This document shows positions 5,221 through 64,000 of a DNA stretch of 64,000 nt, one piece after another. Under the pieces are notes generated by a model. That model was not told where the DNA came from, made no database searches, and saw only the letters and a program-made list of their open reading frames with translations. How positions within the stretch are numbered: the first letter of the stretch is position 1; each line of letters starts with the position of its first letter. The DNA is from a virus. Its lineage: Duplodnaviria > Caudoviricetes. The DNA lies in the IMG/VR virus record IMGVR_UViG_3300015360_000023, positions 138,610 to 202,609 of that record, one strand, 5' to 3'. The translations under genes were made by a program, and so were the position numbers.

Positions 5221-7746
5221 TTATGGAACAACCGCTGGACCATTCCACGGTATGTAGATTCCTCTTCTTAAATGCTGCCATTGTCCACCGCGTAATACCG
5301 TTCCTCCAGAAGTAAAAGCACCATTACCAGTTGTACCATTTAATGTAAAATTAGTGCTATTTATAACGGTTATAATAAACGTTCCATTCGCATTAGTGTT
5401 TCCGCCAACGCTATGAATTGCTACTGATTGACCAGTTATTAATGTGTTTGCAGCCGTAGTTGTTATCTGAATTGGTGAAATACCGTTTCCTGATGTAGTT
5501 TGAACCGACCAAGTTGAATTATCTGTTGTTAAAGTATATTCTGCAAAATTTCCTCTTCCTACTTTAATAATTGGAAGCTGCCCCAAAACTTTTGGATAGA
5601 AAGCAAGTGCTTGTACTGGAGTACCGCCGTTCCACGAGTAAACAGTTCCAGCAGTTAGGTCTACTGGTAATAACTCTGTGGATGAGGTAAATGGACAATC
5701 ACCGCCGTTGGCATCGTACATTGGTCCCGCTCCTTGATTATTACTGGTTACATATGCCAACATGGATGGATGACAAGAAATAGGAGATTCATGAAATGTT
5801 ATTCCTTGTATTGGTGAAATGCCGTTAGTGTAGCCTACTTGCAGAGAAACATCATTTCCAGTGCCGTTACCAACATCTCCACGAGTATTACCTAATACAT
5901 ATAGTCTTCTTATTGGTTTTATTGGTAGTGGCACCGGCTCATTATCTGGCAAACCAAATGTTACAAGAAAAGAGCGTGGACTTGTAAGATTTGAGGCTCT
6001 TCTCATAATCATAGTAACGGATTGTCCAGTATCATCGCCAATAAGCGTATATCTCATTACTTGACCAGAATTACCTGCATCGTCACCAAATCCATTACCA
6101 CCAGAATAGTCTTGATTTGCTACATTACCAGTGAGATTAAAGAAATTTAAATTATGTAAAGAATCTCCTCCAATTGGGAAGTCGCCAACACCATTTCCAC
6201 CAAAACCGGGGGCCGCACTTATTGGAGCGCCAGCACCGTTAAAAATGTTACGAGCACTATCAGCAGTTGATTCGTTACAAACTCTAACCTGCCATGCCAA
6301 AGCATGTGGACTTTGAAGAATGATTCGCGGAGTAACTGAGGATCCTACGCTATTATAGCCGCTAGTTCCGTTGCCAGCCCCATTTTGTGGAGCGCTTGAA
6401 TCTCTCTCGTATAACCACCACATAACGGTATCGTTAGCTTCTACAATAGCTGCATCACCGTTTCCACGATAATCAATAACATACTTATTTTGATTGGTGA
6501 TAGATTGACCAGTTACTAAAGTTCCAGTACCACCAGTTGCGCTAGTAAATGCTTGTTGCGTAACAGCTCCGCCTGTAGTCATGGCTCCAGTTCCACCAGT
6601 ACATCCTGTGAAACTTGTTCCAGTAGTTCCTGAATAAGTAACTGTTTGTAAACCAGCTCCAGTAGTTACCGTGATAACACCGCTAGCAAGAAATCCCGTT
6701 GTTGAAGCGACGTTAATGGTTGCTTGGGGCAAGGATTGGCCGTTAGAGCCAGACGCAATAGTAGTATTAGCATTAGTAACGGTGCCATATGTAATTGTTT
6801 GAAAACCATTACCAATAAGAACTGTTCCTCCCGTAAATGTTGTGCCCGTGCCGCCCGTACAACCAGTAAAGCTAGTTCCAGTTATTCCAGTATAAGTTAT
6901 TGTTGAAGTTCCAGCAGATGTACTTAATAAAAAGGTTCCAGTAGTTGGAAATCCTGTTGTAGAAATTACGTTAATAGTTATGGATGCTGGTAATGATACA
7001 AGATTTCCAGTAGTCATTGTACCAGTACCACCCGTACAACCTGTAAATTGGGTTGCATTAGTTCCAGTATAAGTGACTGTTTGTGTTCCAGCACTAGTCA
7101 CAACTGAAATAGTTCCGCTTGTTGGAAAACCAACAGTAGAGGCTACGTTAACATTTCCATTTGGAAGTGCAACACCATTAGAGGCAGACGCGGTCGTAGT
7201 AGTAGTACCAAAAGTAACAGCATTTGATGTAGATGCAACAGTGGTGCTTGCCCCCACAAAAAAACTTCCGCTTGTTGGAAATCCTGATACAGAGTTAACG
7301 TAAATTGTTCCTTGTGGAAGCGATACGTTATTTGATCCACCTGTAATAGTTGTTGTATTTCCTTGTTGAATTGAAGTGATACCAAAAATGCCAGAATTAC
7401 TTGTAGGATATCTAGTACTTTTAATAACTAATGTTCTACCAATATCAAATGAAGTTACAGTTTTAATATTAAGTGGTATTTGTACCTCAATATTAGCGCC
7501 ATTATTAGCTATACCCACTCTATTGCCACCTGGGAAAGTTGGAGCGGAAGCTGTAGGAGTGGTATCTCCAGAGGCGATTAGTAATGAACCGAAATTATTG
7601 ATTGGATAGTTGGTGTCACCGACGTAAGTGTACCCCAAAATTCTACGTAAAAATAGAACTAATAAATATGACGATATGTATGTTCTAGCTGTGCTAGAAG
7701 TGCCTGTTGAAGTAGCGTTATAATCTCTGCAAGTATAGTGTGCCAT
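5221..7746 (-). CDS. Virion fibre or baseplate protein (type A) with four nested Thr/Gly beta modules
   Basis: Type A core motifs plus repeated SNGxxLPQxTINVxSTxGFPxSG…FTGCTGGTG units. Confidence 0.72.
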   Translation of the reverse strand: MAHYTCRDYNATSTGTSSTARTYISSYLLVLFLRRILGYTYVGDTNYPINNFGSLLIASGDTTPTASAPTFPGGNRVGIANNGANIEVQIPLNIKTVTSFDIGRTLVIKSTRYPTSNSGIFGITSIQQGNTTTITGGSNNVSLPQGTIYVNSVSGFPTSGSFFVGASTTVASTSNAVTFGTTTTTASASNGVALPNGNVNVASTVGFPTSGTISVVTSAGTQTVTYTGTNATQFTGCTGGTGTMTTGNLVSLPASITINVISTTGFPTTGTFLLSTSAGTSTITYTGITGTSFTGCTGGTGTTFTGGTVLIGNGFQTITYGTVTNANTTIASGSNGQSLPQATINVASTTGFLASGVITVTTGAGLQTVTYSGTTGTSFTGCTGGTGAMTTGGAVTQQAFTSATGGTGTLVTGQSITNQNKYVIDYRGNGDAAIVEANDTVMWWLYERDSSAPQNGAGNGTSGYNSVGSSVTPRIILQSPHALAWQVRVCNESTADSARNIFNGAGAPISAAPGFGGNGVGDFPIGGDSLHNLNFFNLTGNVANQDYSGGNGFGDDAGNSGQVMRYTLIGDDTGQSVTMIMRRASNLTSPRSFLVTFGLPDNEPVPLPIKPIRRLYVLGNTRGDVGNGTGNDVSLQVGYTNGISPIQGITFHESPISCHPSMLAYVTSNNQGAGPMYDANGGDCPFTSSTELLPVDLTAGTVYSWNGGTPVQALAFYPKVLGQLPIIKVGRGNFAEYTLTTDNSTWSVQTTSGNGISPIQITTTAANTLITGQSVAIHSVGGNTNANGTFIITVINSTNFTLNGTTGNGAFTSGGTVLRGGQWQHLRRGIYIPWNGPAVVP

Positions 7747-31582: not shown

Positions 31583-32146
31583 TTACTTTCCGGTAGAACC
31601 AAATCCACCTGCTCCTCTTATAGAGGCTCGTGCTTTGCACAGCTTATTATATTCTTCATTGGTAATTCCTTCGACTACCATTTCATCACGGCGTCTTGGA
31701 ATAATCTGTGCAACGGCATCACCGAACTCAATTTTCAATTCAGTGCATCCGCAGTAATCTCCCCACTTTTCTGGCTCATACCATGAACTATTATCATCCC
31801 ATTCTTCTCTGTAGGAGACAGGTGGTAGATATTGGCAAGCAAATACTAATTCACCTTCATATGTTTCATCTACAGTTCCATAGAGAGCATGAAGGTTTTT
31901 CTTAGCGAAAGTACTAGAGCGTGGTTTAATATCATACCACCATCCATCTGGACAATAACCTCGAATGCCTAATGGCATCTTGATAAGATCAAAAGGTTTA
32001 ACTATTAGCGTTTTTCGATCTGACATAGCTGCTCGCACGTCCCAGCCAGAAGCCTTGGGCTCTCCACGAGTTGGGAGGAATCTTTTATCATCCTGAAGGT
32101 CATCACGAAGGGCAAATTTGAAATTGGGGGTATTATATCCGTCCAT
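31583..32146 (-). CDS. dut: dUTPase (trimeric type)
   Basis: Motifs GWDV, PRSS, GTVDETYEGE, GDAVAQII, RGAGGFGSTG. Confidence 0.9.
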   Translation of the reverse strand: MDGYNTPNFKFALRDDLQDDKRFLPTRGEPKASGWDVRAAMSDRKTLIVKPFDLIKMPLGIRGYCPDGWWYDIKPRSSTFAKKNLHALYGTVDETYEGELVFACQYLPPVSYREEWDDNSSWYEPEKWGDYCGCTELKIEFGDAVAQIIPRRRDEMVVEGITNEEYNKLCKARASIRGAGGFGSTGK

Positions 32147-50402: not shown

Positions 50403-51119
50403 TTACTCTTTAATGTCAGATGGGGTGTGAGCGTCCCTTACAAACTTCTTAACACTATCCAAATGAACAAACAAACTCATGTTGGGAATGCGAGTTAATC
50501 GAGAACAAACTCCAAGCAAGTTGCCAGAATCATCAAAGACTCCGCCGCCTGAATTACCATACCATACCGTACCATTGAATTGAACTACTTTACCAATAAC
50601 ACTCTCTTCACGGTAGGCTGCAACTGTTCCTTCTGTATAAGACCAGTATGCTCCTCGTGGATGTCCAACCACGAAAATGTGCTCTCCAATACCAGGCATC
50701 TCCTCAGCTAAACTAGCAACCTCATGCAAGCCAGGTACTCCACGCTTATCTGCCTTAATTAAAGCAAGATCATGGTCTTCATCAAAAGCTGTTACCTTAG
50801 CAAGATGTAAAGCTGCTGGATCCTCTCCCACTTCATGAACTTCTTTCTGTACTACGTAATAGATCTTACGGTCCACTGGGTCAGCTCCCTCTTCACGTGC
50901 TACACAATGTCCTGCCGTTAGAATCTCATCCTTCCCAATCCATATGCCAGTGCAATAAACATGGACATCTCCATCTTCGCTTATAGCTACTAGTGCAACT
51001 GTAGATTCACCAATGTGTTGGTGTAATGCTGATGGACTCCTAACAGGTGTATTCTTACCTGTAGCGCAACCTAGCATCGTTAATACCGCAACCAAACTTA
51101 GAATAAATAATCGCTTCAT
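50403..51119 (-). CDS. Trypsin-like (S1) serine protease, probable lipoprotein
   Basis: LTAGHC (His), DLALIK (Asp), GNSGGG (Ser); start MKRLF at 51119 with MLGC lipobox. Confidence 0.85.
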   Translation of the reverse strand: MKRLFILSLVAVLTMLGCATGKNTPVRSPSALHQHIGESTVALVAISEDGDVHVYCTGIWIGKDEILTAGHCVAREEGADPVDRKIYYVVQKEVHEVGEDPAALHLAKVTAFDEDHDLALIKADKRGVPGLHEVASLAEEMPGIGEHIFVVGHPRGAYWSYTEGTVAAYREESVIGKVVQFNGTVWYGNSGGGVFDDSGNLLGVCSRLTRIPNMSLFVHLDSVKKFVRDAHTPSDIKE

Positions 51120-52088
51120 GCAAACCCTCTTAACGCCTGATTGAGGTAGTGAAATACTACTTCGTGCTTGCACCAGGTCAAACTACCAAAAATACTAATT
51201 TATTCACCTATTTGTCACACTACCTAACACCCCTTTATTTTTATTAATTAGTAGTGCCTCTATACGCCATGTACAGGGCTCTAAAGCCCGCATGCCCTGG
51301 TCTACCTGATAGGTGGCGCGGATTAGTTTAAATAGCCACTCCGCCCCAGGACAACCCCTTCTTAAGGCATAGTGGTAATCGCATATTGTGATCTTTTATA
51401 ATGGCATTAGATGCTTATGGTGGGATATCTTCCCATATTGTGGGATTGAGTGGCATGTATGGTCATATATAGTTGATCAAAAGGGCTGTTTTGGTAATTT
51501 ATATGTTAGTTGAAGGCTTATGGATGCTATCGTAACGAATCAATTAGTGCTATCTGATTGGTTAATAGCTATCGGAACTTAATAGTGCCCATTTGGGAGG
51601 CGGACTGCCAGCGCACACGTCGGACACCCCCACCTTTTGTATGCTGTTGTAGGTGGCATGCTTCTTGCACCTTGCAAATTTTAGACTACCTACATCGCGC
51701 ATATCATCTAACAATCTCTTTATTTTAATCATAGCACACGATAAGTAATATTTTTAATTACATAGCACACATTGTATTGTTTTATAAGATATCATCCGAC
51801 ATTGGGCCGATCGACCTGTTTCGGCCCTCTGGCATACTCTTTGCTCCTTGCAAGGCCCGAGCCAAGGCCCCGTCAAGCCTCCCTAGGCCCTATGACACCA
51901 AGATCATACCCCTAACCCCTCGATATCATTAGGTAACTACTAAGACCTACATTGATCTTTCGGACCAAACATGATCGATCTGTCATGTAGTCAACAAACT
52001 TACCCAGTCATATCGCGTAGTTAGCGCTGGCATGTCTCGTGCATCGTTCCAGGGTAGGGGAAGGACCCCAAAGGAGACGAGGTACGAC

Positions 52089-52802
52089 ATGCCGCACTTC
52101 AACCGACTTGGTGGTGACATGGACGAGGCGAACGCCGAGTGTGCGGCGATGGACCAGGAAGACGCAGACCGTAAGGAGACCGCCCACATGAAGACCCTGA
52201 TTGAAGCCGTCAAGAACCATGCCAAAGCCAACTACGAAGTCGGCGGGTGGGACATGGTGGTTGAATGTTACGAAGACGCCGAGATCGGCGAGGCCATCGC
52301 AGGATGTGCGACGGTGGAGGAGGCCATTGCCGAGGTGGGCAAGACGGCGTCCCTCTACCACGAGAGGCGACAAGAGGCCTGGAGTGAGGGCGGGTTGGAC
52401 AAGAACGGCCGAAGTGTGGAAGACAACGACATGCTGTACGCTGAGGAGGAAGCTGCCCACATTGCAGCAGAGCATCAGGGGGTGTCCTACCTCAACACTG
52501 ATGAGCTGACGGGGTACGAGGAGCACTGCCGAGATGAGGAAAGCACCTACGGTGACCCCCGACGCTGCCCGCGTCACCCACATGTCACCATTGGTTCCCC
52601 GTGTGGGATGTTTGACGGTGTGTGCGGTGAGTGTGAGTATGGTATGGAAATGGAGGACGAAGAGTTCCAGGGTACGGTGCCTGCGGTGGTTGTCAGTGTT
52701 GCACCGACTGGTGTGGAAGTTGTGGCCTGCTGTAAGGAACCGAAGGTGCTGGGCGGCAAGTGTGAGAACTGTGGGACTTGGTCCGACGACATTCCCTTCT
52801 GA
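52089..52802 (+). CDS. Acidic hypothetical protein with Cys clusters
   Basis: SD AGGAG/GAGG before ATG at 52089; CPRHP…C…C..C and CC…C..C motifs. Confidence 0.65.
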   Translation: MPHFNRLGGDMDEANAECAAMDQEDADRKETAHMKTLIEAVKNHAKANYEVGGWDMVVECYEDAEIGEAIAGCATVEEAIAEVGKTASLYHERRQEAWSEGGLDKNGRSVEDNDMLYAEEEAAHIAAEHQGVSYLNTDELTGYEEHCRDEESTYGDPRRCPRHPHVTIGSPCGMFDGVCGECEYGMEMEDEEFQGTVPAVVVSVAPTGVEVVACCKEPKVLGGKCENCGTWSDDIPF

Positions 52803-52826
52803 CCTACATCACCTCTGATGTGAGAG

Positions 52827-52856
52827 AGCCTGCCACACGGCGGGCTTTTTCTTTTT
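52827..52856 (+). terminator. Intrinsic terminator
   Basis: AGCCTGCC-ACAC-GGCGGGCT stem followed by a T tract. Confidence 0.8.
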
Positions 52857-53025
52857 CCGTTTTCCGTATGGAATACTCTTTGCAAGTTGCAAGACCCGAG
52901 CCAAGTTCCGGCGCAACCCACATGAAAGTAAAGGTGGGACAAAAGTGATGTAGCATGTTTGATCGTTCCGCGTTTTCTGCTAGGCTCTTAGTCGTCCCAC
53001 CCTTTCCCTCAGAGGCCAGACCTAC

Positions 53026-53481
53026 ATGTCCTACATCTACCTCGTGATCCTCACTGCTGGCTACTCCTGCTGCGATCAGCTCCAGCGTACGTTGCGAGCC
53101 TTCACCGACAAGGGAGAGGCCGAGTCCTACATGGGTGACATGAAGCACACCATCAGCCGAAACATGGGACTGCGGCATGCGGTCGACGTCTACATGTCCG
53201 ACGTGTGGGGCAAGGTCAACCCGGCTCCCACTTCCTGCCCCTCGTGGGATAACCAGCGCTCCGACGAGGAGAACGAAAAAGCCTACAAGGATCACCAAGA
53301 GGCGTACAACACCTACAGCGATGCCCGACATGCGGAAGAAACCCGCATGCTCTCACTGGTCGGGTGGAAGTGCGAGCTGGACCTACGTTGGGAGGAGCAG
53401 TACGACCTCCACCTCCAAGAGGTGCCGCTGGGGTTTGAGGTGGTTGCCCCTCCGACAGAGGTGGCAGAAGCCGCAGAGTAA
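53026..53481 (+). CDS. Hypothetical protein
   Basis: 151-aa ORF between a promoter motif and a terminator. Confidence 0.65.
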   Translation: MSYIYLVILTAGYSCCDQLQRTLRAFTDKGEAESYMGDMKHTISRNMGLRHAVDVYMSDVWGKVNPAPTSCPSWDNQRSDEENEKAYKDHQEAYNTYSDARHAEETRMLSLVGWKCELDLRWEEQYDLHLQEVPLGFEVVAPPTEVAEAAE

Positions 53482-53494
53482 CTCACAGTGTGAG

Positions 53495-53522
53495 AGCCCA
53501 CCTTACACGGTGGGCTTTTTTC
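53495..53522 (+). terminator. Intrinsic terminator
   Basis: AGCCCACC-TTACAC-GGTGGGCT stem followed by a T tract. Confidence 0.82.
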
Positions 53523-53656
53523 TGGGCCACGTTTCTCGCGGCATACTCTTTGCAATGTGCAACGTCTATGCCAAGTAAGAAACTGTATTGAGATGTAGGA
53601 TAAAAGTTTTTTTGTAGTTTCGTCAGAAAGGGATGGTCCGTTGCGTCTTCTAGATC

Positions 53657-54007
53657 ATGAGCGCAACGGAAACCGCTACGGTGCAAAGCGCAGTTTGCAC
53701 CACCTCTGACCACATCTCCCACTTTGTGGATGTTATCTCCGGTGAGGTACTGGATGAGGACGAGGTAGGATGTTTCATTGATTGTGATGCGGAGGGTCAC
53801 CCTCTCGCAGGTTCTGATGAGATGGGTGTATGGTGGGGAACTGAGCGAGCTGTGTGGGTTCTGTCCCAGCAGTACTACACTGTAGAGGTTTGGGGCTGGA
53901 TGGGGCCCGATCCTTACATTGGCCACTTCCTCGGTACAGAGGAGGAGGTTCGTCACTACTGTGAGACTCATGGAGTGAAGGTAGACCTTATCCAGAGCGG
54001 GCGGTAA
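53657..54007 (+). CDS. Hypothetical protein
   Basis: 116-aa ORF between a promoter motif and a terminator-like hairpin. Confidence 0.6.
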   Translation: MSATETATVQSAVCTTSDHISHFVDVISGEVLDEDEVGCFIDCDAEGHPLAGSDEMGVWWGTERAVWVLSQQYYTVEVWGWMGPDPYIGHFLGTEEEVRHYCETHGVKVDLIQSGR

Positions 54008-54020
54008 TCTGCTTACATCG

Positions 54021-54049
54021 GAGGGGAGGGCTTACCTCCCCCTTCTTTT
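54021..54049 (+). terminator. Probable intrinsic terminator
   Basis: GGGGAGG / CCTCCCC stem followed by TTCTTTT. Confidence 0.55.
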
Positions 54050-54317
54050 GTCTCCAATGAAGGCAAAAGTTTACCCGTATCGTACTTACCCAGACAGTGT
54101 GGTATAGGTGATACCTGGCATACTCTGTGCAAGTTGCATGATCTGGGCCAACTACAGCTCGCTTACCATACGACAAGGGGTAATGTAGGCTAATGTAGTT
54201 GGTATACTCTATGCAATATGCAAGCTAGCTATGCCAACACACAATGTAGGAGAACAAGCCGAAGATCCAGACCAGTCGGGGGTTGGCATACTCTTTGCTA
54301 CTTGCACTCCACGTGCC

Positions 54318-54556
54318 GCGCCAGCGGCGCCAGCGCACTAGAAGAGGAGACCGCCGAGGCAGGTTTTGCCCACATCTCCTGACGTTGGCATACTCTGTGC
54401 GATAAGCACTCCTCGTGCCATGGCGCCAGCGGCGCCAGCGTCGGACCATGCCGCGCCAGCGGCGCCAGCGGCGCCAGCGTGGGAAGGGTCGCGCGAGACG
54501 CGCCAGCGGCGCCAGCGTCGGACCATGCCGCGCCAGCGGCGCCAGCGGCGCCAGCG
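54318..54556. repeat. 12 copies of GCGCCAGCG, including a perfect 57-bp direct repeat (54423-54479 = 54500-54556)
   Basis: Read directly: blocks of 2, 2+3 and 2+3 units, with the TCGGACCATGCC spacer inside each 57-mer. Confidence 0.9.
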
Positions 54557-55498
54557 CTCGCACAATGCGAGCAAAACCTATGACACGAAGATCATACCCA
54601 CGAGGTGGTTTTGACTACCTCTTGCGACGTTTACCTACAGTGCCAGTTTCTCGGGGTTTCTCGACAATCGGCGAGCCCATGAAAGATAATTGCTTATCCT
54701 ACATCGCAGAATGTAGCGGAAGATCGATCAAGCATGACGCTAAGATCATTGTCGTACCTTTGGTCACCCTAACAATATCATATAGTTACGTTTGGCACCG
54801 ACGTTGCATTAGTGTCTTTCCGTAACGAGCGGCGGAACGGGACGGGACGCTAAGCGGCCCAAGCGCACTATGTGCGACCTTTCCCTGCTCGCTTGACCGC
54901 GCCTCGGGCGCCTACATATCCCACCTCTGGTGGGACGCAGTGGGGTTGCACCCACATGTAGTTGACATGCTCACAAGTCCTACTCTGGCGACCGTGTGAA
55001 CGGTATGCGCGCTCTCGTAACTCCCGCACCTACATGGTGCAAAAGGGAGCGAGGGAAGGCGATACCGGGATAAGCGGTAGCGAAAGGTAGGCAAGGGTCG
55101 GCTGGCTAGAACGGTCGCGGGCAAAACCTGGAACCTACAGTGTAGGTTCGGTTGCAAGCTGCGCGGTGACGCCTAGTGCGAGACGACCCTACAGTGTATC
55201 CCGAGGAGGGATAACCCGTTCAAGGGGCTGCGACCAGCGATTACACCGTCCGACAATGTAGGACATAAGGTGGCGAGGGCTTCGCGACTAGGCAATCCGA
55301 CGTAGGCAATCAACCTACAGTATCGCGACCTAGGCTTCTTAGGGGAGGTGGTAAGAATCCACCTACACTAAACAACGCTATGTGGGACCTATGTAGGTCC
55401 CGCGTAGCGGAAAGCTTACAAGGTACGACAATCTTGTTGGCTTTCCGCTACGACTGTAAACTCTCTAACCCAAGCAAAAGAAAAGGTAGGATACTATC

Positions 55499-56065
55499 AT
55501 GAAGAACACCACCACGTCGGACAAGTCGGTCAAGGTCGTCTCGGATGCGCGCTCGGAGGAGATCCTCTCCTGCTTCCGCACGCTTCACCACAAGGTGCTC
55601 CAGGCTCTCACGGAGTGCGAGATCCCCGCACTCTTCAACGCAGACTTCGCCAAGTGTGCGCCGGAGGACTACAAGCTCCTCCACCAGCAGAGCCGCGCCC
55701 TGATCGGCGCCAAGGCCAAGGCGGCGTGGGACACCTACATCTCCGACATCAAGGAGAAGATCCAGGGTGTCATCGACACCCACATGAACCTCGCACGTGA
55801 GGACAAGTCGGAGTGGGATTGCCTCTCGGATCGCGCCAAGGGTCGCAGCCCGTGGTCCAATGTGGTCAAGGTGCCGGTGTCGGACCTCATCCCCTGTTTC
55901 GCCGAGGGTAAGGCCCTGTCGGAGGTGGTGGCAGAGCTGGACAAGCTGTTCTCCGGAAAGGTGGGCAAGGGTAAGGACGACTCCTTCTACCTGAGCCTCG
56001 CGTTCACCCCGGCCGCCAAGGTGGTCGAGGTGGTCGAAAGTGAGACGGCGGCAGTCGCGGCCTGA
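55499..56065 (+). CDS. Hypothetical protein with strongly GC3-biased codons
   Basis: SD-like AGGTAGG; clean 188-aa ORF. Confidence 0.75.
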   Translation: MKNTTTSDKSVKVVSDARSEEILSCFRTLHHKVLQALTECEIPALFNADFAKCAPEDYKLLHQQSRALIGAKAKAAWDTYISDIKEKIQGVIDTHMNLAREDKSEWDCLSDRAKGRSPWSNVVKVPVSDLIPCFAEGKALSEVVAELDKLFSGKVGKGKDDSFYLSLAFTPAAKVVEVVESETAAVAA

Positions 56066-56487
56066 GCCACCTACACCCTGCTCCCAGGTGCCCCTATGTG
56101 GGTGCCTGGGGGCATGAGTAGTTTGCTCAACCACATTGGCATACTCTGTGCTACTTGCACCGACCATGCCATAGGAGTGATCTAATGTGCAACCGATGTC
56201 GAACGGGGACGTGTAAGCCCTTGTGTCATGACGTGGTTTGCTACGAGAGCAAGGCTTCCCGTATGTGGGTATCTAGTCCACATGATGGTCAACTCGTTCC
56301 CATCGTGTGCTTCCCCCATACATGGAAGCTCAAGTGGGGCTCGCCGGCCAACTGTAGCGGCAAGTAGCATCTTGGCATACTCTGTGCTCCTTGCAAGGTT
56401 CATACCAACCCAAGGCACACATGCGCCCACAATTCTAGTTGCATCAATCCTGATTGGTGCTACAATTCTATCTGTCCTAAAGGAGCA

Positions 56488-57012
56488 ATGACCATGCGAA
56501 TGATCAGCCATCGGACCCACACCTACATCCCCCACTTCCTGCTCATCTTCACCTACGGTGGGCAAGGTGGGTGCTTCACCTTCGAGTGCGATAAGCACGG
56601 CAACGTCAATGTGAGCAATCTCTCACCGTGTGCGCTCAAGAACTACAACACCTGCATGAGCGGACATGTGGTTGCCTCCCCTCGCCGGCAGCAACGGTCG
56701 TATGTGGTCGATGGTGAGACCATGTACGAGAACGCCCCTGGATGTGACCAGGAGGTTACCTACAAGGTGGACAGTGATGTGCGGGACTACGGCAAGTACG
56801 AGCACACCGCCGCTGTAGGTGAGTGTGACCGCTGCGGCCGACACGTCCACCTACATGGGTTCACCAACACCTGCGAGTGTGGGGCGGACTACAACATGTC
56901 GGGTCAACGTCTCGCTGACCGCTCGCAATGGGGCGAAGAGACGGGTGAGAGTGTATCCGACATCCTCTCCGTCGACTCCGACATGTCCTACAACGACTAC
57001 GGCTGTCCGTAG
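56488..57012 (+). CDS. Hypothetical Zn-finger protein
   Basis: SD AGGAG; C-terminal CDRCG…CECGADYN.SGQ.LA…QWGEETGE. Confidence 0.7.
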   Translation: MTMRMISHRTHTYIPHFLLIFTYGGQGGCFTFECDKHGNVNVSNLSPCALKNYNTCMSGHVVASPRRQQRSYVVDGETMYENAPGCDQEVTYKVDSDVRDYGKYEHTAAVGECDRCGRHVHLHGFTNTCECGADYNMSGQRLADRSQWGEETGESVSDILSVDSDMSYNDYGCP

Positions 57013-57059
57013 TTCACTCACATCCACCCACACCAACCTTCACTGAAAGGAAACATCCC

Positions 57060-57230
57060 ATGATCAAGTTCATTCTCCTCATTCTCCTCTGTTTCGGCGC
57101 CTATACGGCGCTGTGTGTGTTCGCCCCCTCCACGTGGGCGCCGGCCTTCCGCATCTCGGGTCATGGCATTCCCTACCTGGCACTCGGTGTGTGCCTGTGT
57201 GGGTACGTTGGCTACAAGGCCATCAAGTGA
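57060..57230 (+). CDS. Small membrane protein (56 aa), absent from the ORF track
   Basis: Manual translation MIKFILLILLCFGAY…YKAIK; AGGA upstream; two hydrophobic segments. Confidence 0.6.
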   Translation: MIKFILLILLCFGAYTALCVFAPSTWAPAFRISGHGIPYLALGVCLCGYVGYKAIK

Positions 57231-57337
57231 AGGCGGAAACGCAGGAGGTAGGATACCTGGCCACCATTCTCCTCACCATCGCAGTGGGAGGTGTCTTCCT
57301 CCCCGTCTACTACATGGTGGTTTCCTTCCTCTTCTAG
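57227..57337 (+). CDS. Small membrane peptide (36 aa)
   Basis: GTGA overlap with the previous gene; single hydrophobic stretch. Confidence 0.45.
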   Translation: MKAETQEVGYLATILLTIAVGGVFLPVYYMVVSFLF

Positions 57338-57472
57338 AGGAGTGCAGCGACAGAAAGGAATCAGGTGGGTTCGACTCCCACCCTGCCTGTCGCCTAATTC
57401 ACACATTGGCATACTCTGTGCAACTTGCAGGGTGCATGCCCACGAACGTCAACCCACACGTAGGAGGATGTC

Positions 57473-58024
57473 ATGAACGGTATGAGCAAGGAGACGCTTC
57501 TGGTCATCATCAGCACCTTGTCGGAGAAGGTGGCAGTGATGGAGCTGGTCAACGACGGGTACGCCAAGGTGGTTCAGGGCCTGGAAGCACACAACGACCG
57601 ACATCACCTCGACTTGGACGATGCGCAGTACACCATCTCCGACCTCCGCCGACAGTTGGAGCGGGTCAACAACGACAAGGACGACAGCTCCTACCGTATC
57701 CGACAGGAGAACGACCGCCTGTACGCGGAGGTGCGACAGCTCAAGCAGGAGAACTACAGGCTCACCTACGGTGGGTCGTCTCCCGAAGAGACGGCGACTG
57801 CCTACATGCAGCGCCAGGGGGCGGCCGTGTGGGCAAACGGTGAGCGGATTGCCTGTATCAAGGTGTGCCGCGAGGTGAGCGGATGGGGGCTGAAGGAGAC
57901 CAAGGACTTCTGCGAAGCCTACATGGACCGACAGAAGGTGACGGAGGAGGAGTCGCCCTCCGGTACCAAGCGGTCCTCGCAGATTCCCGCAGGTGTGGGA
58001 GTGCAGAGCAAACGGTCGGCCTAA
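57473..58024 (+). CDS. Coiled-coil protein with a C-terminal ribosomal L7/L12 CTD-like segment
   Basis: SD AGGAGG; RIACIKVCREVSGWGLKETKDFCE resembles KIxVIKxVRxxTGLGLKEAKxxVE. Confidence 0.6.
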   Translation: MNGMSKETLLVIISTLSEKVAVMELVNDGYAKVVQGLEAHNDRHHLDLDDAQYTISDLRRQLERVNNDKDDSSYRIRQENDRLYAEVRQLKQENYRLTYGGSSPEETATAYMQRQGAAVWANGERIACIKVCREVSGWGLKETKDFCEAYMDRQKVTEEESPSGTKRSSQIPAGVGVQSKRSA

Positions 58025-58081
58025 GCCTACACCCTGCTCACCTGGGAAACCATGTGGGCAGGAGTAGTCCAAGGAGGACAC

Positions 58082-58297
58082 ATGAAAGCAATCATCCTAC
58101 TCATCGCACTCTCAACCACTGGGTGCGTACCTGTCATCGCAGGTATGGCGCTGAGGGACCACGGTGATCGCAAGTGGCAGGAGATGGAATACCGACATAA
58201 GGAGAAGATGCGCGAGCTGGACATACAGGAGCGCACACTCAAACAGAACGCACCACAACAGAGTAACGGTGCGATAGTCAGGGACAACCCTTACTGA
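58082..58297 (+). CDS. Small probable lipoprotein
   Basis: SD AGGAGG; MKAIILLIALSTTGC signal/lipobox-like start. Confidence 0.6.
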   Translation: MKAIILLIALSTTGCVPVIAGMALRDHGDRKWQEMEYRHKEKMRELDIQERTLKQNAPQQSNGAIVRDNPY

Positions 58298-58478
58298 CCT
58301 TGGCATACTCCGTGCTCCTTGCAAGACTCATACCGCACCAAGGGACACCCACCTCTACACACATCAATCTTTCCTAAAAGACTTGGTGCATCTTACTTGA
58401 TACGTGCTATCTTATCAGTCTCTCGTTTCACTCCAACCAAGCCGCTCCGAGAGGAGCCAAGTACGAGGAGGTAGGACA

Positions 58479-59363
58479 ATGGCTATCAGCGTCTACGAAG
58501 TGGTTACGGAGCGCATCATTGCGGCACTTGAGAAGGGTGTCGTACCTTGGCGCATGCCCTGGCGCACACAAGGTGGGAGCAACATGCCCCGCAACCTACA
58601 GTCCGGCAAGGACTACCGTGGAGTCAACATCCTACTCCTGGGGTGCATGGGGTTTTCGGACCCACGTTGGTGCTCCTACAAGCAGGCTGGCGCCAAGGGC
58701 GGACAGGTGCGCAAAGGTGAGAAGTCCACCCCGGTCATCTTCTGGAAGGTGCTTGACAAGAAAGGTGGGAAGCCGGGGGAAAAGTCCTTCATCCTCCGCT
58801 ACTACAATGTCTTCAATGTGAGTCAGTGTGATTGGGCGGAGCCGCTGCCCTCTCTGACTGGAGACGCACCTGCACCCACCTTCGACCCCATCGAAGAGTG
58901 CGAGCGGATCGTGCTGTCCTACAAGACCATACCTGCCATCGACCATGGCGGTAGCCGAGCCTGCTACATGCCTACCTTTGACCGGGTATGTATGCCTGCC
59001 AAGGAGAGCTTTGGTAAGAGAGAGGAATACTATTCCACACTCTTCCACGAGCTGACTCACTCTACCGGACATGAGAGCAGGTTGAACCGTGATGGGATCA
59101 TGAATCCTATCCGGTTTGGCTCACATGACTACAGCTTTGAGGAGCTTGTAGCCGAATGTGGGGCGGCGTTCCTCTGCGCACAAGCGGGTATCATTGACCA
59201 CACCCTGGACAACAGTGTGGCATATATCCAGAACTGGGCAAAGAAGCTGAAAAGTGAGCCCAAGTGGATTGTGGAAGCGGCAAGCAAAGCGGCCAAGGCG
59301 GCTGACTACATCTTCCCACCTCCTGCGGTGAAGGAAGAGGAGTCGGAAGAAGAGGCTGCGTGA
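58479..59363 (+). CDS. ardC: ArdC-like ssDNA-binding antirestriction protein (DUF1738 plus zincin-like domain)
   Basis: VT.RII..LE.G..PW..PW, Y.G.N, YYSTLFHEL.H.TGH, Y..EELVAE; SD GGAGG before 58479. Confidence 0.85.
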   Translation: MAISVYEVVTERIIAALEKGVVPWRMPWRTQGGSNMPRNLQSGKDYRGVNILLLGCMGFSDPRWCSYKQAGAKGGQVRKGEKSTPVIFWKVLDKKGGKPGEKSFILRYYNVFNVSQCDWAEPLPSLTGDAPAPTFDPIEECERIVLSYKTIPAIDHGGSRACYMPTFDRVCMPAKESFGKREEYYSTLFHELTHSTGHESRLNRDGIMNPIRFGSHDYSFEELVAECGAAFLCAQAGIIDHTLDNSVAYIQNWAKKLKSEPKWIVEAASKAAKAADYIFPPPAVKEEESEEEAA

Positions 59364-59762
59364 AGGTAGTGTACGTGACTGGGCCATCTATCTCCTTAGT
59401 GTGGGAGGATGGCTCAGTCTGCTCCTACATCTGGTCACCAAGTAAAGCGGCGGGCAAGCCCACATCAGGGGGGGTGACGCTAGCCTACCCGCCGCATCTG
59501 TAAGTTAGTTCTTCTGACAGCGGATGCGAGCGCGACTGTAAAACGAGCGCCTACACCCTGACCATATGTGAGCATTACGCCAGCATGTGGTCAGAAGTAG
59601 GCTCTTGCTGACATTGGCATACTCTGTGCTACTTGCAAGATAGCTGCCACGGCGAGCGAGAGAAAGGGCACACACCCACCCACAATTATGTTGGGAAGGT
59701 GTCGAATGTAATTGAAGCTAGCATCACTTCTGATAGAATGATGCTGGTAGAAAGGAACACAC

Positions 59763-60047
59763 ATGTTGACGCGCAAAGAGGCAATGTCGGATATCAACCT
59801 GGGACGTGGGATTCAGCTCACCTTCGTGGGTATGTTCACTACCTTCTCCGTCATTGTGCGCCAAGGGTACAACGGTGTGGGTGCGGTTGCCCACATCGAG
59901 TGTCCTGTCATGCGCCGCACCTACAAGGTGTTCCTGACCAGCAAGCAGACGCTTGCCTACATCAAACGACATTACACCCGACATGATGCGGGTGTGGATG
60001 GTGTGCGTGTCCAAGCGGATCCATTCAACTACAAGAGGGTAGCATGA
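59763..60047 (+). CDS. Hypothetical protein
   Basis: AGGA upstream; follows the promoter motif at 59615. Confidence 0.6.
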   Translation: MLTRKEAMSDINLGRGIQLTFVGMFTTFSVIVRQGYNGVGAVAHIECPVMRRTYKVFLTSKQTLAYIKRHYTRHDAGVDGVRVQADPFNYKRVA

Positions 60048-60475
60048 ACGACAAGCGGCCTTGGAGTGAGGGAGGGTGCGACAAGCCCTTCTGTGTCAGT
60101 GCATGGTCCGACACCCCTGGTGAAACGGACACATGTAGCATGGGCGTCGACTTCTCCACCGAAGTGGAAGCACGTGAGTGCTTGGCGCAGTTCAGCGCAC
60201 GATTCCCCTGGACGAAGGATCTTCCCTACCTTCTCCTCGACGGTCCCGACGTTCACGAGGTGACCACGCGCACACTTCAGCTCAAGCGCTCACAACGTGA
60301 GCAGGAGAGGGACGAACGTGAGGCAAGGTCGGAGCAGGCCATGCAAGCAGGGATGGGTATGGGGATTCACGCCTACAACGATGCCATGGGGTACGACAGT
60401 GAGCCCTATGACCCTGCCATTCACGACAGTGACTACGATCGTGAGCCCATGGGTTCCGATGAAGGTTGGTTCTGA
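60044..60475 (+). CDS. Hypothetical protein
   Basis: ATGA overlap; acidic tail. Confidence 0.65.
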   Translation: MNDKRPWSEGGCDKPFCVSAWSDTPGETDTCSMGVDFSTEVEARECLAQFSARFPWTKDLPYLLLDGPDVHEVTTRTLQLKRSQREQERDEREARSEQAMQAGMGMGIHAYNDAMGYDSEPYDPAIHDSDYDREPMGSDEGWF

Positions 60476-60702
60476 TGGATCGGGCCTACACTGGGCACCA
60501 TGAGATTCTTCTTCCCGACATCGAGATCAAGGAGAACCGTGCAGAATACATCTACGTACCTCTGCGCGGTTACTCTCACACCATGGCAGTCTTCACTGCA
60601 AACCTAGACTGTCCGATCGGATGGATCAATAGTGAGACACTTGGTTGCAGTTCCGTCCCTGCGTGGATGGCACTCACCAAGTGGGTTGACCAAGGCTACT
60701 AA
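60475..60702 (+). CDS. Hypothetical protein
   Basis: TGATG overlap start at 60475. Confidence 0.5.
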   Translation: MDRAYTGHHEILLPDIEIKENRAEYIYVPLRGYSHTMAVFTANLDCPIGWINSETLGCSSVPAWMALTKWVDQGY

Positions 60703-60718
60703 CCTGAAAGGTACGACC

Positions 60719-60994
60719 ATGAACGAAGAAGACGATGATCTGGACGAGTGTGAGGAAGAGGAGCAGGAGTACTACGATGACCGTGAGTGTGAGGATGGCG
60801 ACTACCTAATCGACGGTGTAGGTTTTGCGGACCCTGGCGGTCACTCTTCCCTACGTGCGGAGACGGCCAGCAACCCCCGCAACCTTCCTTGTGGGACGTG
60901 TGGGGAACCTGACCGCCTGACCCCTGCTGACAAGCGACGTGGGTATCAGTGCGACAGTTGCGCTGACCGCGCAGAAGGGCGTGGGGGATACTGA
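60719..60994 (+). CDS. Acidic hypothetical protein with a Zn ribbon
   Basis: SSLRA….NPRNLPCGTCG….LTPAD…GYQCDSCAD. Confidence 0.65.
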   Translation: MNEEDDDLDECEEEEQEYYDDRECEDGDYLIDGVGFADPGGHSSLRAETASNPRNLPCGTCGEPDRLTPADKRRGYQCDSCADRAEGRGGY

Positions 60995-60995
60995 G

Positions 60996-61232
60996 ATGAT
61001 CACCTACCTCAACCCCGACCACGTTGTGGGCAAGCGTCAGACAGCGACTCCGCCCAATCGGAGTCGGTCGGGCTATGGGAACAAGTTGCCTACATCCTGG
61101 CAGCTTCAACTACAGGACAAGAGGTGGAGGCGTGTGTACGTCATCTGCTGGTCAAACAGCGGGTCGGCCTACATCCTGACCAAAAGTGGGAAGTTGTTCC
61201 TGGGCTACTACGAGCCAAGTTACAACCCATGA
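60996..61232 (+). CDS. Hypothetical phage protein
   Basis: GYG.KLPT.W…RWRRVY..CWSNSGSAYI; start MITY at 60996. Confidence 0.65.
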   Translation: MITYLNPDHVVGKRQTATPPNRSRSGYGNKLPTSWQLQLQDKRWRRVYVICWSNSGSAYILTKSGKLFLGYYEPSYNP

Positions 61233-61366
61233 GAACCTACATTCTGGAGCTTCCTCCTCCGGTGGTAGTCAAGCGTAGGTGTGAGTGTTGCAACAACCTA
61301 CTTGGATGTCAGAATCCTGGGTGGGTATGCGACATGTGCAAAAGCATGGGAGGCAAACAGACATGA
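61229..61366 (+). CDS. Small Zn-ribbon peptide
   Basis: ATGA overlap; CECC…CDMC. Confidence 0.5.
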   Translation: MRTYILELPPPVVVKRRCECCNNLLGCQNPGWVCDMCKSMGGKQT

Positions 61367-61584
61367 AGGTGCAAGTGGAGAATGAGGATCTGGTAGCGCA
61401 GCAAGTGGCAGTTATTGAGGGCAACACCTGCATTGTGGTGAGCTGCAATGACTTTGACCACTACAAGCGTCTGCCTGCGGTTGTCTCCTACAACGGAGTC
61501 AAGTGTGGGAAGACGGGGTGGAACAGCGATACCAACCGCTGTCACTACCAGAGCAACGCCCACATCGTTCAGGTGTGTAGGTGA
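61363..61584 (+). CDS. Hypothetical protein
   Basis: ATGA overlap start MKVQ; SD GGAGG. Confidence 0.6.
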   Translation: MKVQVENEDLVAQQVAVIEGNTCIVVSCNDFDHYKRLPAVVSYNGVKCGKTGWNSDTNRCHYQSNAHIVQVCR

Positions 61585-61832
61585 GTGTCAGGGTCTCTAT
61601 TCTGGCAGACCACATCTGCATAGAAGATGAGAGAGGTGAGATAGCGTACTGGGACCGGCAGGAATGGCTGGACGATCCTGACCTTATCCTATCTATCGCC
61701 AATGCAATTCGGGTTGCATGTACGCAAGGAGGAGACGCGGCACGACAATATCCCCGATGCCCTACAGAAGCGTCGGATGAGGAAGACGCTGTACGACATA
61801 CCTTCGTCAATGAAGGCACACGGGAAGACTAG
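61581..61832 (+). CDS. Hypothetical protein
   Basis: GTGA overlap. Confidence 0.55.
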   Translation: MSVRVSILADHICIEDERGEIAYWDRQEWLDDPDLILSIANAIRVACTQGGDAARQYPRCPTEASDEEDAVRHTFVNEGTRED

Positions 61833-61968
61833 CATACAAGTAGAGAGGAGGTAGGATGATCAAGCGCATCATTGGTAGGATCAAGTGGTTCTTCGAGAAC
61901 GACACACACGGACCATGTGACTGGTAACCGTTCACACACCTACATCAACCCACAACGAAAGGCTACAT

Positions 61969-62211
61969 ATGTCTAATACCGACAACAACAAGACGCTCCC
62001 CACTCCTACCACTCCTGCCGACAAGACGGACAAGCGTAAGCAAAGTCTGTACTTTCCGGAGAGTATGCTCCAAGAGATCAAGGAGGAGGCGGCTCGGCTG
62101 GATCGTAGTCTGTCGTGGGTGGTTCAGCGTGCGTGGAAGCTGGCACGGTTGGAAGTCAAGAAACTTCCCAGTGTGTCGGAGGTGTCGGGCGAAGAGGAAG
62201 AAGATATCTGA
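61969..62211 (+). CDS. TIGR04563-like (MXAN_4361/4362 family) small ribbon-helix-helix-like protein
   Basis: TDKRKQSLYFPE.ML.EI.EEA.R.DRSLSW.VQ.AWK.AR recalled as this myxobacterial family. Confidence 0.75.
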   Translation: MSNTDNNKTLPTPTTPADKTDKRKQSLYFPESMLQEIKEEAARLDRSLSWVVQRAWKLARLEVKKLPSVSEVSGEEEEDI

Positions 62212-62283
62212 TGCACTTACACCCTGCTTCATACGCAAGTATGGGGCAGGAGTAAGTTTATCACTCACCAAAAAGGAGACGAT

Positions 62284-62814
62284 ATGCGACAAGTCAAGAT
62301 GGTGTCGGGCGTGAGCGGTTCAGGTAAGAGCACGCACGTGCTCAACGTCATCATGGACTACATGAAGGGCCTAGGTATGACAGCGGAGCAGATGATGTCC
62401 TCTCCCATGCCTACGGCTACGGTGTCGTTGTGTTCGGCTGATTCCTTCTTCGAGGTGCCCAATGAGGGCGGGCCTCCTACCTACAACTTCGATGCATCCA
62501 AGCTGAGCGAGGCACATGGTAAGTGCTTTCGCGACTTCATCACCGCTTTGACTTCCAATGTGGAGTTGGTGGTTGTGGATAACACCAATACCACGGTGGC
62601 GGAGGTTGCCCCTTACTTCCTGGGAGCCCAGGCGTATGGGTACGACATCGACCTCATCACGGTCATGTGTGAGACAGATGCCGACATCAAGCTCTGCGCT
62701 GCGCGGAACACCCACAACGTGCCGGAGGGTGGTATCTTCGCCCAGCATCGGCGCTTGTGTGCGAGGGAGCTGATGCCCTGGTGGAAGAACACCTTTCAGC
62801 CGGTGGTGCGCTGA
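62284..62814 (+). CDS. P-loop kinase/ATPase (AAA_33, polynucleotide-kinase-like)
   Basis: SD AGGAG; GVSGSGKST Walker A, CSAD.F, VVVDNTN, RN.H.VP. Confidence 0.75.
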   Translation: MRQVKMVSGVSGSGKSTHVLNVIMDYMKGLGMTAEQMMSSPMPTATVSLCSADSFFEVPNEGGPPTYNFDASKLSEAHGKCFRDFITALTSNVELVVVDNTNTTVAEVAPYFLGAQAYGYDIDLITVMCETDADIKLCAARNTHNVPEGGIFAQHRRLCARELMPWWKNTFQPVVR

Positions 62815-63041
62815 TGCGCAAGGTTGAATACCTGAGAGCCCTGGATGACCAAACGTGGGATACGGTAGTCATCGAGGTTCCTTCTACTGAGGAGGGACCT
62901 GACAATGGGATTGACTACGACAACCTGAGTGAATCGGATATTGAGGTGGAATTGCAGGACTACAGCAATTCGGTCCTCAGTCGCCTAGAGGCACACAGGA
63001 AGGTGGTTCTGTTCGCCGTCTACAACAACGAGGTGAGCTAA
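62814..63041 (+). CDS. Hypothetical acidic protein
   Basis: TGATG overlap start MRKV. Confidence 0.55.
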   Translation: MRKVEYLRALDDQTWDTVVIEVPSTEEGPDNGIDYDNLSESDIEVELQDYSNSVLSRLEAHRKVVLFAVYNNEVS

Positions 63042-63286
63042 TGCTCTACATCCACTACATCCTGCCGGATGGTGAGGGATTGAAGGAGAGGGAGTGGGAA
63101 GTAGGACAGGCGCAGCCATCCAAGCAGTTGGAAGACGGCGACCTACAGATTCACACCATATCAGCCGAAGGTAAGGAGTTAGCGCACATCATCTCCACTT
63201 TCTCTAACCTGCCTTACAAGTACACACAAGACAACCTATGTGTGTGGAGGGGTGACCTGGCGCGGTTCATCTTCGACAATCTGTAG
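63041..63286 (+). CDS. Hypothetical protein
   Basis: TAATG overlap. Confidence 0.6.
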   Translation: MLYIHYILPDGEGLKEREWEVGQAQPSKQLEDGDLQIHTISAEGKELAHIISTFSNLPYKYTQDNLCVWRGDLARFIFDNL

Positions 63287-63439
63287 GATGAGCGAAGGCG
63301 CGGTGATCGTAAGTAGGGAGTGTGCGCCCACATACTACACCCTGTCTATTATCTGTCTGGCGAATAAGTCGGGTTTATTCGTGTGGCAGATAATGGGCAG
63401 TCGTAGGAGGTGAGACCATGTAACCGATAAGGGGATACG

Positions 63440-63760
63440 ATGGGATGTGAGAACTGTCAGTGCGAGTGTCATAAGCCGGACCGAGGTAGGATGCTAAACG
63501 AGCATGCAAGCCTGGGTGCGCTTATCGTCACTCTCCTACAACAGATACCCGAGGTAGAGAAAGCGGCGAGAAAGACGCCGGCTAAAACAATGATAGCCGA
63601 GCGTGCGAAAGTGAAAGCGGCTCAACTACAACTGCCCATCATGAAGGATAACCTGCTCAAAGCACGGACCGAGCATAGGCAACTAACACTCACATTGGAG
63701 TGCTCGGGTGCTTGGGGTAGGTGGAGACAAGAGAATCCCGGTAAGTCAACTCCCCTATAA
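63440..63760 (+). CDS. Hypothetical protein
   Basis: AGGGG upstream; CENCQCECH start. Confidence 0.55.
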   Translation: MGCENCQCECHKPDRGRMLNEHASLGALIVTLLQQIPEVEKAARKTPAKTMIAERAKVKAAQLQLPIMKDNLLKARTEHRQLTLTLECSGAWGRWRQENPGKSTPL

Positions 63761-63769
63761 AGAGGACTC

Positions 63770-63952
63770 ATGATATCCTACGCTACATTCACCCTCATAG
63801 TCCTCGTACTGTCGATGATGTCCTCCTATGTAGTTAGCATGTGCATTGGTGGGAGTGGACGGGGTACGTGGACCACAATTCGTGGAGTGGAGACAACCTG
63901 CATACACTGTCGGCGTATGCGCAAGTTCACTAGGAAGGGACCTTACCGCTGA
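63770..63952 (+). CDS. Small membrane-anchored Zn-ribbon protein
   Basis: SD GAGG; hydrophobic N-terminus followed by CIHC. Confidence 0.5.
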   Translation: MISYATFTLIVLVLSMMSSYVVSMCIGGSGRGTWTTIRGVETTCIHCRRMRKFTRKGPYR

Positions 63953-64000
63953 TATCCTACAACCGAAGAAAGCTAATTGCCATGTAGGGGTGACGCCCGA

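Follow-up and report, generated by a model that had tools for sequence, protein, structure and literature searches.

Face-to-face sigma-54-type sites in the GC-rich arm of a microbial-mat megaphage and in other viral contigs: candidate bidirectional promoters or holoenzyme traps

Which protein reads a short element that is repeated in a single orientation, always between genes, in one arm of a phage genome? The question is raised by a 64-kb stretch of DNA, hereafter the window, which forms the end of a 202,609-bp IMG/VR virus record (G000:C1:138610-202609) obtained from microbial-mat metagenomes and estimated to be ~47% complete (CheckV). The original prediction, made from the sequence of the window, described fourteen plus-strand copies, within 8 kb, of an element resembling the -24/-12 promoters of sigma-54 (RpoN), thirteen of them followed by an extra TGCA-like box that might serve as a separate operator. 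The analysis presented here reassigns that box to a second site of the same type on the opposite strand, traces the resulting dyad through related and unrelated viral contigs and weighs the possible readers, among which host RNA polymerase carrying sigma-54 is tentatively preferred.

A 35-bp dyad between the genes of the GC-rich arm

A search of the window with the motif TGGCATACTCTKTGCW, allowing up to two mismatches, gave 13 matches against 0.14 expected, a number reached in none of 100 shuffles. Twelve of the matches lie at 51830-59630, all on the plus strand, the remaining one being a stray match at 31697, and a variant copy with three mismatches is located at 51654; the array copies thus extend from 51654 to 59630, and no further copy was found elsewhere in the 202,609-bp record. 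They read TGGCATACTCTkTGCw or similar, and each is placed between open reading frames (ORFs). Hence, thirteen of the fourteen predicted copies stand, all intergenic and on the plus strand, and the fourteenth is present only in diverged form, probably as the site at 52028. This site and a generic solo site at 54793 bring the forward sites to 15 in all. The RpoN-type architecture and spacing that had been predicted hold throughout, GG-N10-GC being exact in 15/15 forward sites. Generic GG-N10-GC sites with a score of at least 11/12 are concentrated in the 12.8-kb GC-rich part of the record, with 19 sites against 0.5 expected, and remain near expectation in its 190-kb AT-rich part (4 sites vs 3 expected).

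Alignment of the array showed conservation at positions 1-15, 19-23 and 31-34, with the downstream blocks mirroring the upstream ones. The element is therefore a 35-bp dyad, TGGCA-N7-TGC-N5-GCA-N7-TGCCA, present in 11 copies, in which an opposed minus-strand GG-N10-GC site ends exactly 34 nt past the forward start. The second (T/A)GCA box is found, as foreseen, in 13/13 array copies; it is not an operator in its own right but belongs, as the -12 box, to the opposed sigma-54-type half-site, and the CCGAGCCAAG continuation observed at two copies, 51830 and 52869, is the corresponding -24 box (TTGGCTCGG). Exact GG-N10-GC spacing is kept in 11/12 reverse arms in the window, and the arms score 9-12 of 12 sigma-54 consensus positions. 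The two arms differ in their degree of conservation, since the forward one is near-invariant, including its spacer ATACTCT, and the reverse one has variable spacers and looser -24 boxes, with GG and GC always kept.

The forward arms stand 48-259 nt upstream of start codons, and the copies typically follow an intrinsic terminator or a CTAC...GTAG hairpin. In nine cases the copy separates a terminator from a small gene and has the same orientation as that gene (Table 1). The four-copy cluster predicted at 54116-54401 was confirmed, with spacings of 84, 84 and 102 bp and no genes inside.

Two other explanations of the element are poorly supported. A structured hairpin (terminator, RNA element or attC-like) is disfavoured by weak folding energies of -5 to -8.4 kcal/mol (z -0.6 to -4.4) and by stems that consist of fixed words with no covariation; the only Rfam match was sub-threshold and located on a terminator, with nothing relevant to the dyads. 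A promoter for a single-subunit (T7-like) phage RNA polymerase does not fit, the conservation being bipartite and palindromic and the spacers differing among relatives. The PF00940 profile search for such a polymerase gave no match, but its positive control was equally silent, so that this search is uninformative.

From the architecture, enrichment, position relative to genes and conservation of the elements we infer that each dyad is formed by two opposed sigma-54 -24/-12 sites with abutting -12 boxes. A sigma-54 promoter gives no transcription before an ATPase activator has opened the complex. Host RNA polymerase with sigma-54 would occupy the dyad in either of two orientations that exclude each other. 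The forward half, kept near-invariant, would be the promoter of single-gene early or anti-defence cassettes, each built as a terminator or hairpin followed by the dyad and the gene, and transcription would start at a point ~12 nt past the forward GC that falls within the reverse arm. The reverse half would confer a bidirectional potential, sensible where the two genome arms join and between divergent genes in other phages. Opening of the complex would be accomplished by an ATPase activator, presumably either an enhancer-binding protein of the host or some factor encoded in the missing half of the genome. That the host sigma-54 holoenzyme binds the dyads, with the forward half driving the cassette genes, is a serious possibility, somewhat short of probable, and promoter function is the best guess for the gene-proximal copies. 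A sigma-54-type reader is preferred because it would bring together the boxes, their exact spacing, the secondary consensus, the variable spacers, the breadth of phages concerned and the gene-proximal orientation.

The dyads resemble the enhancer-dependent sigma-54 promoters glnAp2, pspA and nifH in GG-N10-GC, in the boxes and flanking preferences and in being intergenic and gene-oriented. Unlike these promoters, the phage dyad comprises two face-to-face sites with -12 boxes 2-5 nt apart and is repeated in 13-15 copies; neither an enhancer site nor an activator gene is visible in the DNA searched, and one arm is wrongly spaced in the related record G001. While the sigma-54 promoter elements themselves are known, their symmetric, phage-typical arrangement would be new, and a literature search found no description of paired opposed sigma-54 sites or of sigma-54-run early regions in phages.

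Recurrence of the dyad in relatives and across viral sequence

The dyad recurs in related megaphage contigs. In G001, whose ArdC-like anti-restriction protein is 75% identical to that of the window, the element precedes orthologous genes; at 163,963 a ribosome-binding site adjoins it, and three copies of opposite polarity are found at the junction where the composition of that genome changes. Several symmetric 35-bp dyads each are carried by G002, G003, L150 (ArdC 95% identical), L188, L149/L157 (a 422-kb contig), L136, L168 and L143. Both arms of L136 read TGGCACG-N4-TTGCA with differing spacers, that is, the textbook consensus, which is quoted as TGGCACG-N4-TTGCW (PMC3538637, PMC6424431). 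The gene-facing arm is better conserved than the reverse arm in the window phage, in L150 and in L149. Searches directed at the nucleotide sequence or proteins of the locus were negative: megablast of 51600-59700 found no match in 50,697 phage records, and a related-locus search with the 188-aa protein of 55499-56065 found none either. The exact 23-nt motif of the original prediction has no match in IMG/VR, and its 15-nt form matches only once per contig, which was judged to be chance.

A generic form of the dyad, TGGCAY-N6-TGCW-N3-WGCA-N6-RTGCCA, was matched in at least 119 IMG/VR contigs of 29-66% GC content. In 596 Gbp of prokaryote genomes the same pattern gave 34 stretches, mostly single matches in scattered taxa. 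The consensus was checked on 246 arms (123 distinct dyads from 117 viral contigs) at positions not imposed by the search. T precedes TGGCA in 58% of the arms, position 7 is G in 61% or A in 35%, T precedes TGC in 68%, and the remaining spacer carries little information; in a set of 496 arms the spacers were highly diverse. These preferences at the free positions coincide with the known secondary preferences of sigma-54, as written in the extended consensus YTGGCACGr-N3-TTGCW, and, because the search did not impose them, they provide an independent check. The broad viral spread of the dyad, together with its scarcity in prokaryote genomes, is best fitted by a reader that is conserved across bacteria.

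With 0-14 nt allowed between the two -12 boxes, 125/139 dyads have a gap of 2-5 nt. Since the gap varies, it fits two independent overlapping sites rather than one rigid dimer, and it is tight enough that the two sites would overlap and exclude each other. Assuming the usual distance of 12 nt between GC and start, transcription in the two directions is predicted to begin at points 16-19 bp from each other. Divergent gene pairs flank 20/53 classifiable dyads against 173/1010 background pairs (Fisher p = 7e-4, with crude ORF calls); within the window, divergent gene context is missing for most copies.

This geometry resembles that of the symmetric bidirectional sigma-70 promoters, whose core elements abut on opposite strands, with 18 bp as the distance seen most often between divergent starts in Escherichia coli and a bidirectional range of 7-25 bp, and which show enrichment in DNA acquired horizontally and frequently lie between divergent genes (Warman et al., 10.1101/2020.01.31.928960; PMC12825309). 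As in those promoters, polymerase could bind the phage dyad in either of two exclusive orientations, with predicted starts at a similar distance. However, the bidirectional sigma-70 promoters arise because the -10 hexamer is itself symmetric, whereas the phage dyad would be a deliberate pairing of bipartite sigma-54 sites, and most dyads of the window have a gene on one side only.

That many unrelated phage lineages carry a symmetric double sigma-54 site of 34-37 bp, with the function of bidirectional promoter or holoenzyme trap, is a tentative generalization, a serious possibility on these data though short of probable. If true, hijacking or disarming a minor host sigma factor would be a strategy common among phages that has so far gone undescribed, and the whole early anti-defence arm of a megaphage would run without a phage-encoded classical activator. 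The early programme would then be under the control of a signalling protein of the host or of an unknown phage activator, unlike in the textbook schemes based on sigma-70, phage sigma factors or phage polymerases. The frequency of the dyad in viral contigs and its rarity in cellular genomes suggest a phage-specific use of sigma-54. Moreover, the dyad would offer a compact candidate for a bidirectional activator-gated promoter in synthetic biology and a sequence signature for locating control regions of uncultured phages.

Other observations were made at the loci that carry dyads. Caulobacter phage RLK, whose terminase shares 45% identity with that of one lineage bearing the dyad, is itself without the dyad. 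A first guess that many of the dyad contigs were T4-like cyanophages proved wrong. Fur-box-like (AATGATTCTCATT-like) sequences adjoin tandem dyad arrays in two unrelated viral contigs (L133 ~120-200; L254 ~5630-5660). In G002, a word of 15-17 nt, CCCATCGCCAAACGG on the coding strand (L130 1-17, 1434-1451, 1913-1930, 2078-2095, 3032-3049), stands before the ribosome-binding sites of five early genes in succession, whether or not a dyad lies upstream.

Weighing sigma-54 against other readers

Several results count against sigma-54 as the reader. Changes of the spacing between GG and GC are known not to be tolerated by sigma-54, and all five gene-facing arms of G001 are 3 nt shorter (TTGGCAYGCTTGCAT, GG-N7-GC), the reverse arms of the same record being canonical; short-arm dyads of this type were found in no viral contig other than G001. 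The spacer ATACTCT is fixed in the lineage of the window although sigma-54 does not read the spacer, and its ATACT form is rare elsewhere. Reverse arms inside the array face only the 3' end of the preceding gene, yet their GG and GC are kept. The activator that the original prediction called for was not encountered: no ORF with PF00158, PF04552 or GAFTGA was found in the records G000-G003, each less than 50% complete, and neither a sigma-54 domain, for activation or for DNA binding, nor a GAFTGA ORF turned up in 1.9 Mb of loci that carry dyads. Likewise, no shared enhancer or operator motif rises above background within 200 nt on either side of the dyads. Some activators, e.g. FlgR, are known to act without enhancers (by a reference listed in PMC3162934).

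The irregular spacing of G001 would be accommodated if the forward arm were a sigma-70 extended -10 promoter (TG-n-CATACT), or a dual sigma-70/sigma-54 one, the remainder of the dyad then falling at the start site or beyond it. Both TGGCATACT and the TGGCATGCT of G001 indeed show TG followed by a -10-like hexamer with A at 2 and T at 6, and the reading takes in the 3-nt indel. However, across the whole family the same positions are TGGCACG(N), which is not a -10 element, no -35 element is present and a sigma-70 scan stayed at background, with 9 sites vs 6.6 expected. We consider it very improbable.

The dyads might instead bind sigma-54 or its holoenzyme mainly as decoys that draw off a scarce sigma factor during replication of the phage DNA, an idea raised by the original prediction for the empty cluster, or hold stable closed complexes and so form roadblocks or insulators from one cassette to the next. 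The gene-less cluster of four copies points in this direction, as do several other phages in which at least three dyads form dense arrays with periods of 42-47 bp, leaving no space for genes. Conservation of reverse arms that face no gene, the retention of the reverse arm in G001 where the forward arm is out of register, and the failure to find either an activator or an enhancer site in the sequence searched would also be expected of such elements. A pure decoy, however, needs no orientation, and nine copies are placed exactly at promoter positions and oriented with the genes, with the gene-facing arm the better conserved one in the window phage, L150 and L149. This reading is regarded as rather unlikely, but as a serious alternative.

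A reader encoded by the phage, either a DNA-binding protein or a specificity subunit of RNA polymerase, would account for the near-invariant forward spacer within the lineage and for the altered arm length of G001 being held in all its copies; its likeness to sigma-54 would be convergent or partial. More than half of the genome is unseen, and one candidate subunit is at hand in the part of the record outside the window, a 219-aa sigma-70-family ORF (Sigma70_r2 at E 5e-7, G000:C1 ~122,721-122,840), which presumably serves later genes. As a variant of this reading, the four T(G/T)GCA blocks, which are paired at a distance of one helical turn, might be subsites of an oligomeric ribbon-helix-helix protein such as the homologue of Myxococcus xanthus CdbA that the phage encodes, a weakly supported suggestion. 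CdbA binds as a tetramer to direct repeats 4 bp apart, one turn apart (PMC7156744), and between the window and G001 no gene of the arm is better conserved than its homologue, for which identity is 89% at the nucleotide level over 159 bases and 96% at the amino-acid level over 45 residues. The likeness to the operators of M. xanthus CdbA (PDB 6SBW; PMC7156744) lies in the repetition of short subsites at one helical turn. Unlike the dyad, the CdbA site is a GC-rich direct repeat and, as judged from a published mutant oligonucleotide, it does not resemble the dyad. CdbA is also confined to one lineage, no homologues having been found outside Myxococcales (PMC7156744) and tblastn with the phage homologue finding no match in 50,697 phage records, whereas the dyad is widespread in very different phages. 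Against a phage-encoded reader in general, the sigma-54 consensus is reproduced at the free positions, the gap between the arms varies by 4 bp, and no protein family is common to most dyad loci, the largest, terminase, being present at 22 of ~124. A phage-encoded reader is considered rather unlikely, but likewise a serious alternative.

The CdbA homologue bears also on the host. It shares ~72% identity over 60 residues with the M. xanthus protein (PDB 6SBW), keeps the residues K8, S10, R27 and R30 that contact cyclic di-GMP (c-di-GMP) and is conserved in G001, L168 and L190. Because the phage encodes this homologue and CdbA has been reported only from Myxococcales, a myxobacterial host is plausible, in line with the mention of myxobacteria in the original prediction, and the protein may be viewed as a host marker and a candidate DNA-binding factor. 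In M. xanthus rpoN is essential. The same species is credited with 53 sigma-54 enhancer-binding proteins (PMC3162934). The 40% GC content of the main genome is unexpected for a myxobacterial host.

Genome setting and neighbouring features

The array starts at a sharp change in composition that recurs in three relatives. GC content is ~40% over the first 190 kb of the record and switches to 57% at the start of the arm, estimates for the GC-rich part up to the end of the contig being 55-60% or 50-57%; this part spans at least 12.8 kb here and at least 43 kb in G001. Beyond the end of the window, contigs of runs X3 and X4 continue for another 0.9-2.7 kb. A chimeric assembly was rejected as the source of this switch. 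It is not an artefact of assembly, because independent single contigs from the runs X1, X2 and X4 span the junction (51.2-52.0 kb) at similar depth and because the syntenic places of G001 (204 kb) and G002 (179 kb), two related records, show the switch as well. To the right of the junction all genes are rightward and consist mostly of small ORFans, with the ArdC-like protein and the CdbA homologue. From this gene content and layout, the arm would be an early, anti-defence-like region.

Table 1. Position of the sites, dyads and neighbouring features (coordinates of the window unless a record or contig is named)
Feature	Position	Strand	Remarks
Trypsin-like peptidase	50403-51173	minus	First of the leftward genes left of the junction
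Compositional junction	51200-52000	none	GC content changes from ~40% (left) to 55-60% (right); leftward genes vs rightward arm
GC switch in relatives	G001:C1 ~160.5-161 kb; L130 ~3100-3400		
Solo forward sigma-54-type site	51654-51669	plus	TGGCATG-CTTC-TTGCA, without opposed half-site
35-bp dyad	51830-51864	plus	Forward arm 51830-51845; minus-strand reverse arm TGGCTCGGGCCTTGCA ends at 51864
Diverged solo forward GG-N10-GC site	52028-52043	plus	ATG at 52089, 61 nt downstream
35-bp dyad	52869-52903	plus	Terminator 52822-52851 ends 17 nt before; ATG 53026 is 157 nt on
35-bp dyad	53539-53573	plus	Follows terminator-like hairpin; ATG 53657 is 118 nt downstream
Gene-less cluster	54116-54420	plus	Starts 54116, 54200, 54284, 54386; three 35-bp dyads; reverse arm of 54200 is 2 nt further out
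Solo consensus-like site	54793-54808	plus	TGGCACC-GACG-TTGCA, within ORF-free stretch; conserved in G001
35-bp dyad	56137-56171	plus	Ribosome-binding site of 60-aa ORF (ATG 56185) begins 2 nt later
35-bp dyad	56373-56407	plus	ATG 56488 is 115 nt downstream
35-bp dyad	57407-57441	plus	ATG 57473 is 66 nt from dyad start; no space for another promoter
35-bp dyad	58301-58335	plus	178 nt upstream of ArdC-like gene; orthologous to the G001 dyad preceding its ArdC
ArdC-like anti-restriction gene	58479-59363	plus	ArdcN and zincin peptidase; PF08401 4e-34, PF18818 1e-36, phrog_7245 3.5e-76
Last 35-bp dyad	59615-59649	plus	ATG 59763 is 148 nt downstream; then tightly packed genes, no more copies
CdbA homologue	61969-62211	plus	80 aa; ribbon-helix-helix c-di-GMP and DNA-binding protein; E 8.9e-24 to PDB 6SBW

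The arrangement of the arm recalls an integron, as the dyads are co-oriented imperfect palindromes between single-gene cassettes, and could suggest that they are crossover sites of a site-specific recombinase that shuffles these cassettes. Cassette content does differ between relatives, and one cassette is polymorphic within the mat samples: a 428-bp single-gene cassette at 53586-54013, with a 116-aa ORF at 53657-54007, is absent from contigs of runs X2 and X4 and from part of X1. However, this deletion does not extend from dyad to dyad, its breakpoints being 12 nt past one dyad and ~100 nt ahead of the next, no recombinase is seen near the array and the match to the full sigma-54 consensus would be left unexplained. 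Recombination sites are hence the least credible of the functions considered, with next to no likelihood.

The region 3' of the empty dyad cluster has features of its own. Directly adjoining it, a tandem array of the 9-mer GCGCCAGCG, with a higher-order repeat of 77 bp, extends over 54314-54565, and insertions or deletions of 9 bp in this array distinguish the samples. It is followed, downstream of the four tandem dyads, by ~900 nt without a credible ORF (54566-55498), containing many CCTACA/TGTAGG hairpins; the segment 54687-54808 within this stretch is 71% identical to G001. An Rfam search with the ORF-free stretch gave nothing. It could be a highly expressed non-coding RNA.

The hexamer CCTACA is not limited to that stretch. 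In the GC-rich arm (51500-64000) it occurs 44 times on the plus strand and 12 times on the minus strand, a density of 3.5 per kb vs 0.18 per kb in the AT-rich part, and it is located both inside genes and at the 5' foot of the intergenic CTAC...GTAG hairpins. Ribosome-binding sites also appear stronger in the GC-rich arm. ARAGORN called no tRNA in the window; a hairpin, GGTGGGTTCGACTCCCACC at 57363-57383, resembles the T-arm of a tRNA and is placed 24 nt upstream of the dyad at 57407. Finally, the gene at 52089-52802 encodes an acidic, Cys-rich protein of 237 aa whose tail, ...WSDDIPF, is the C-terminal motif of the bacterial single-stranded DNA-binding protein (SSB).

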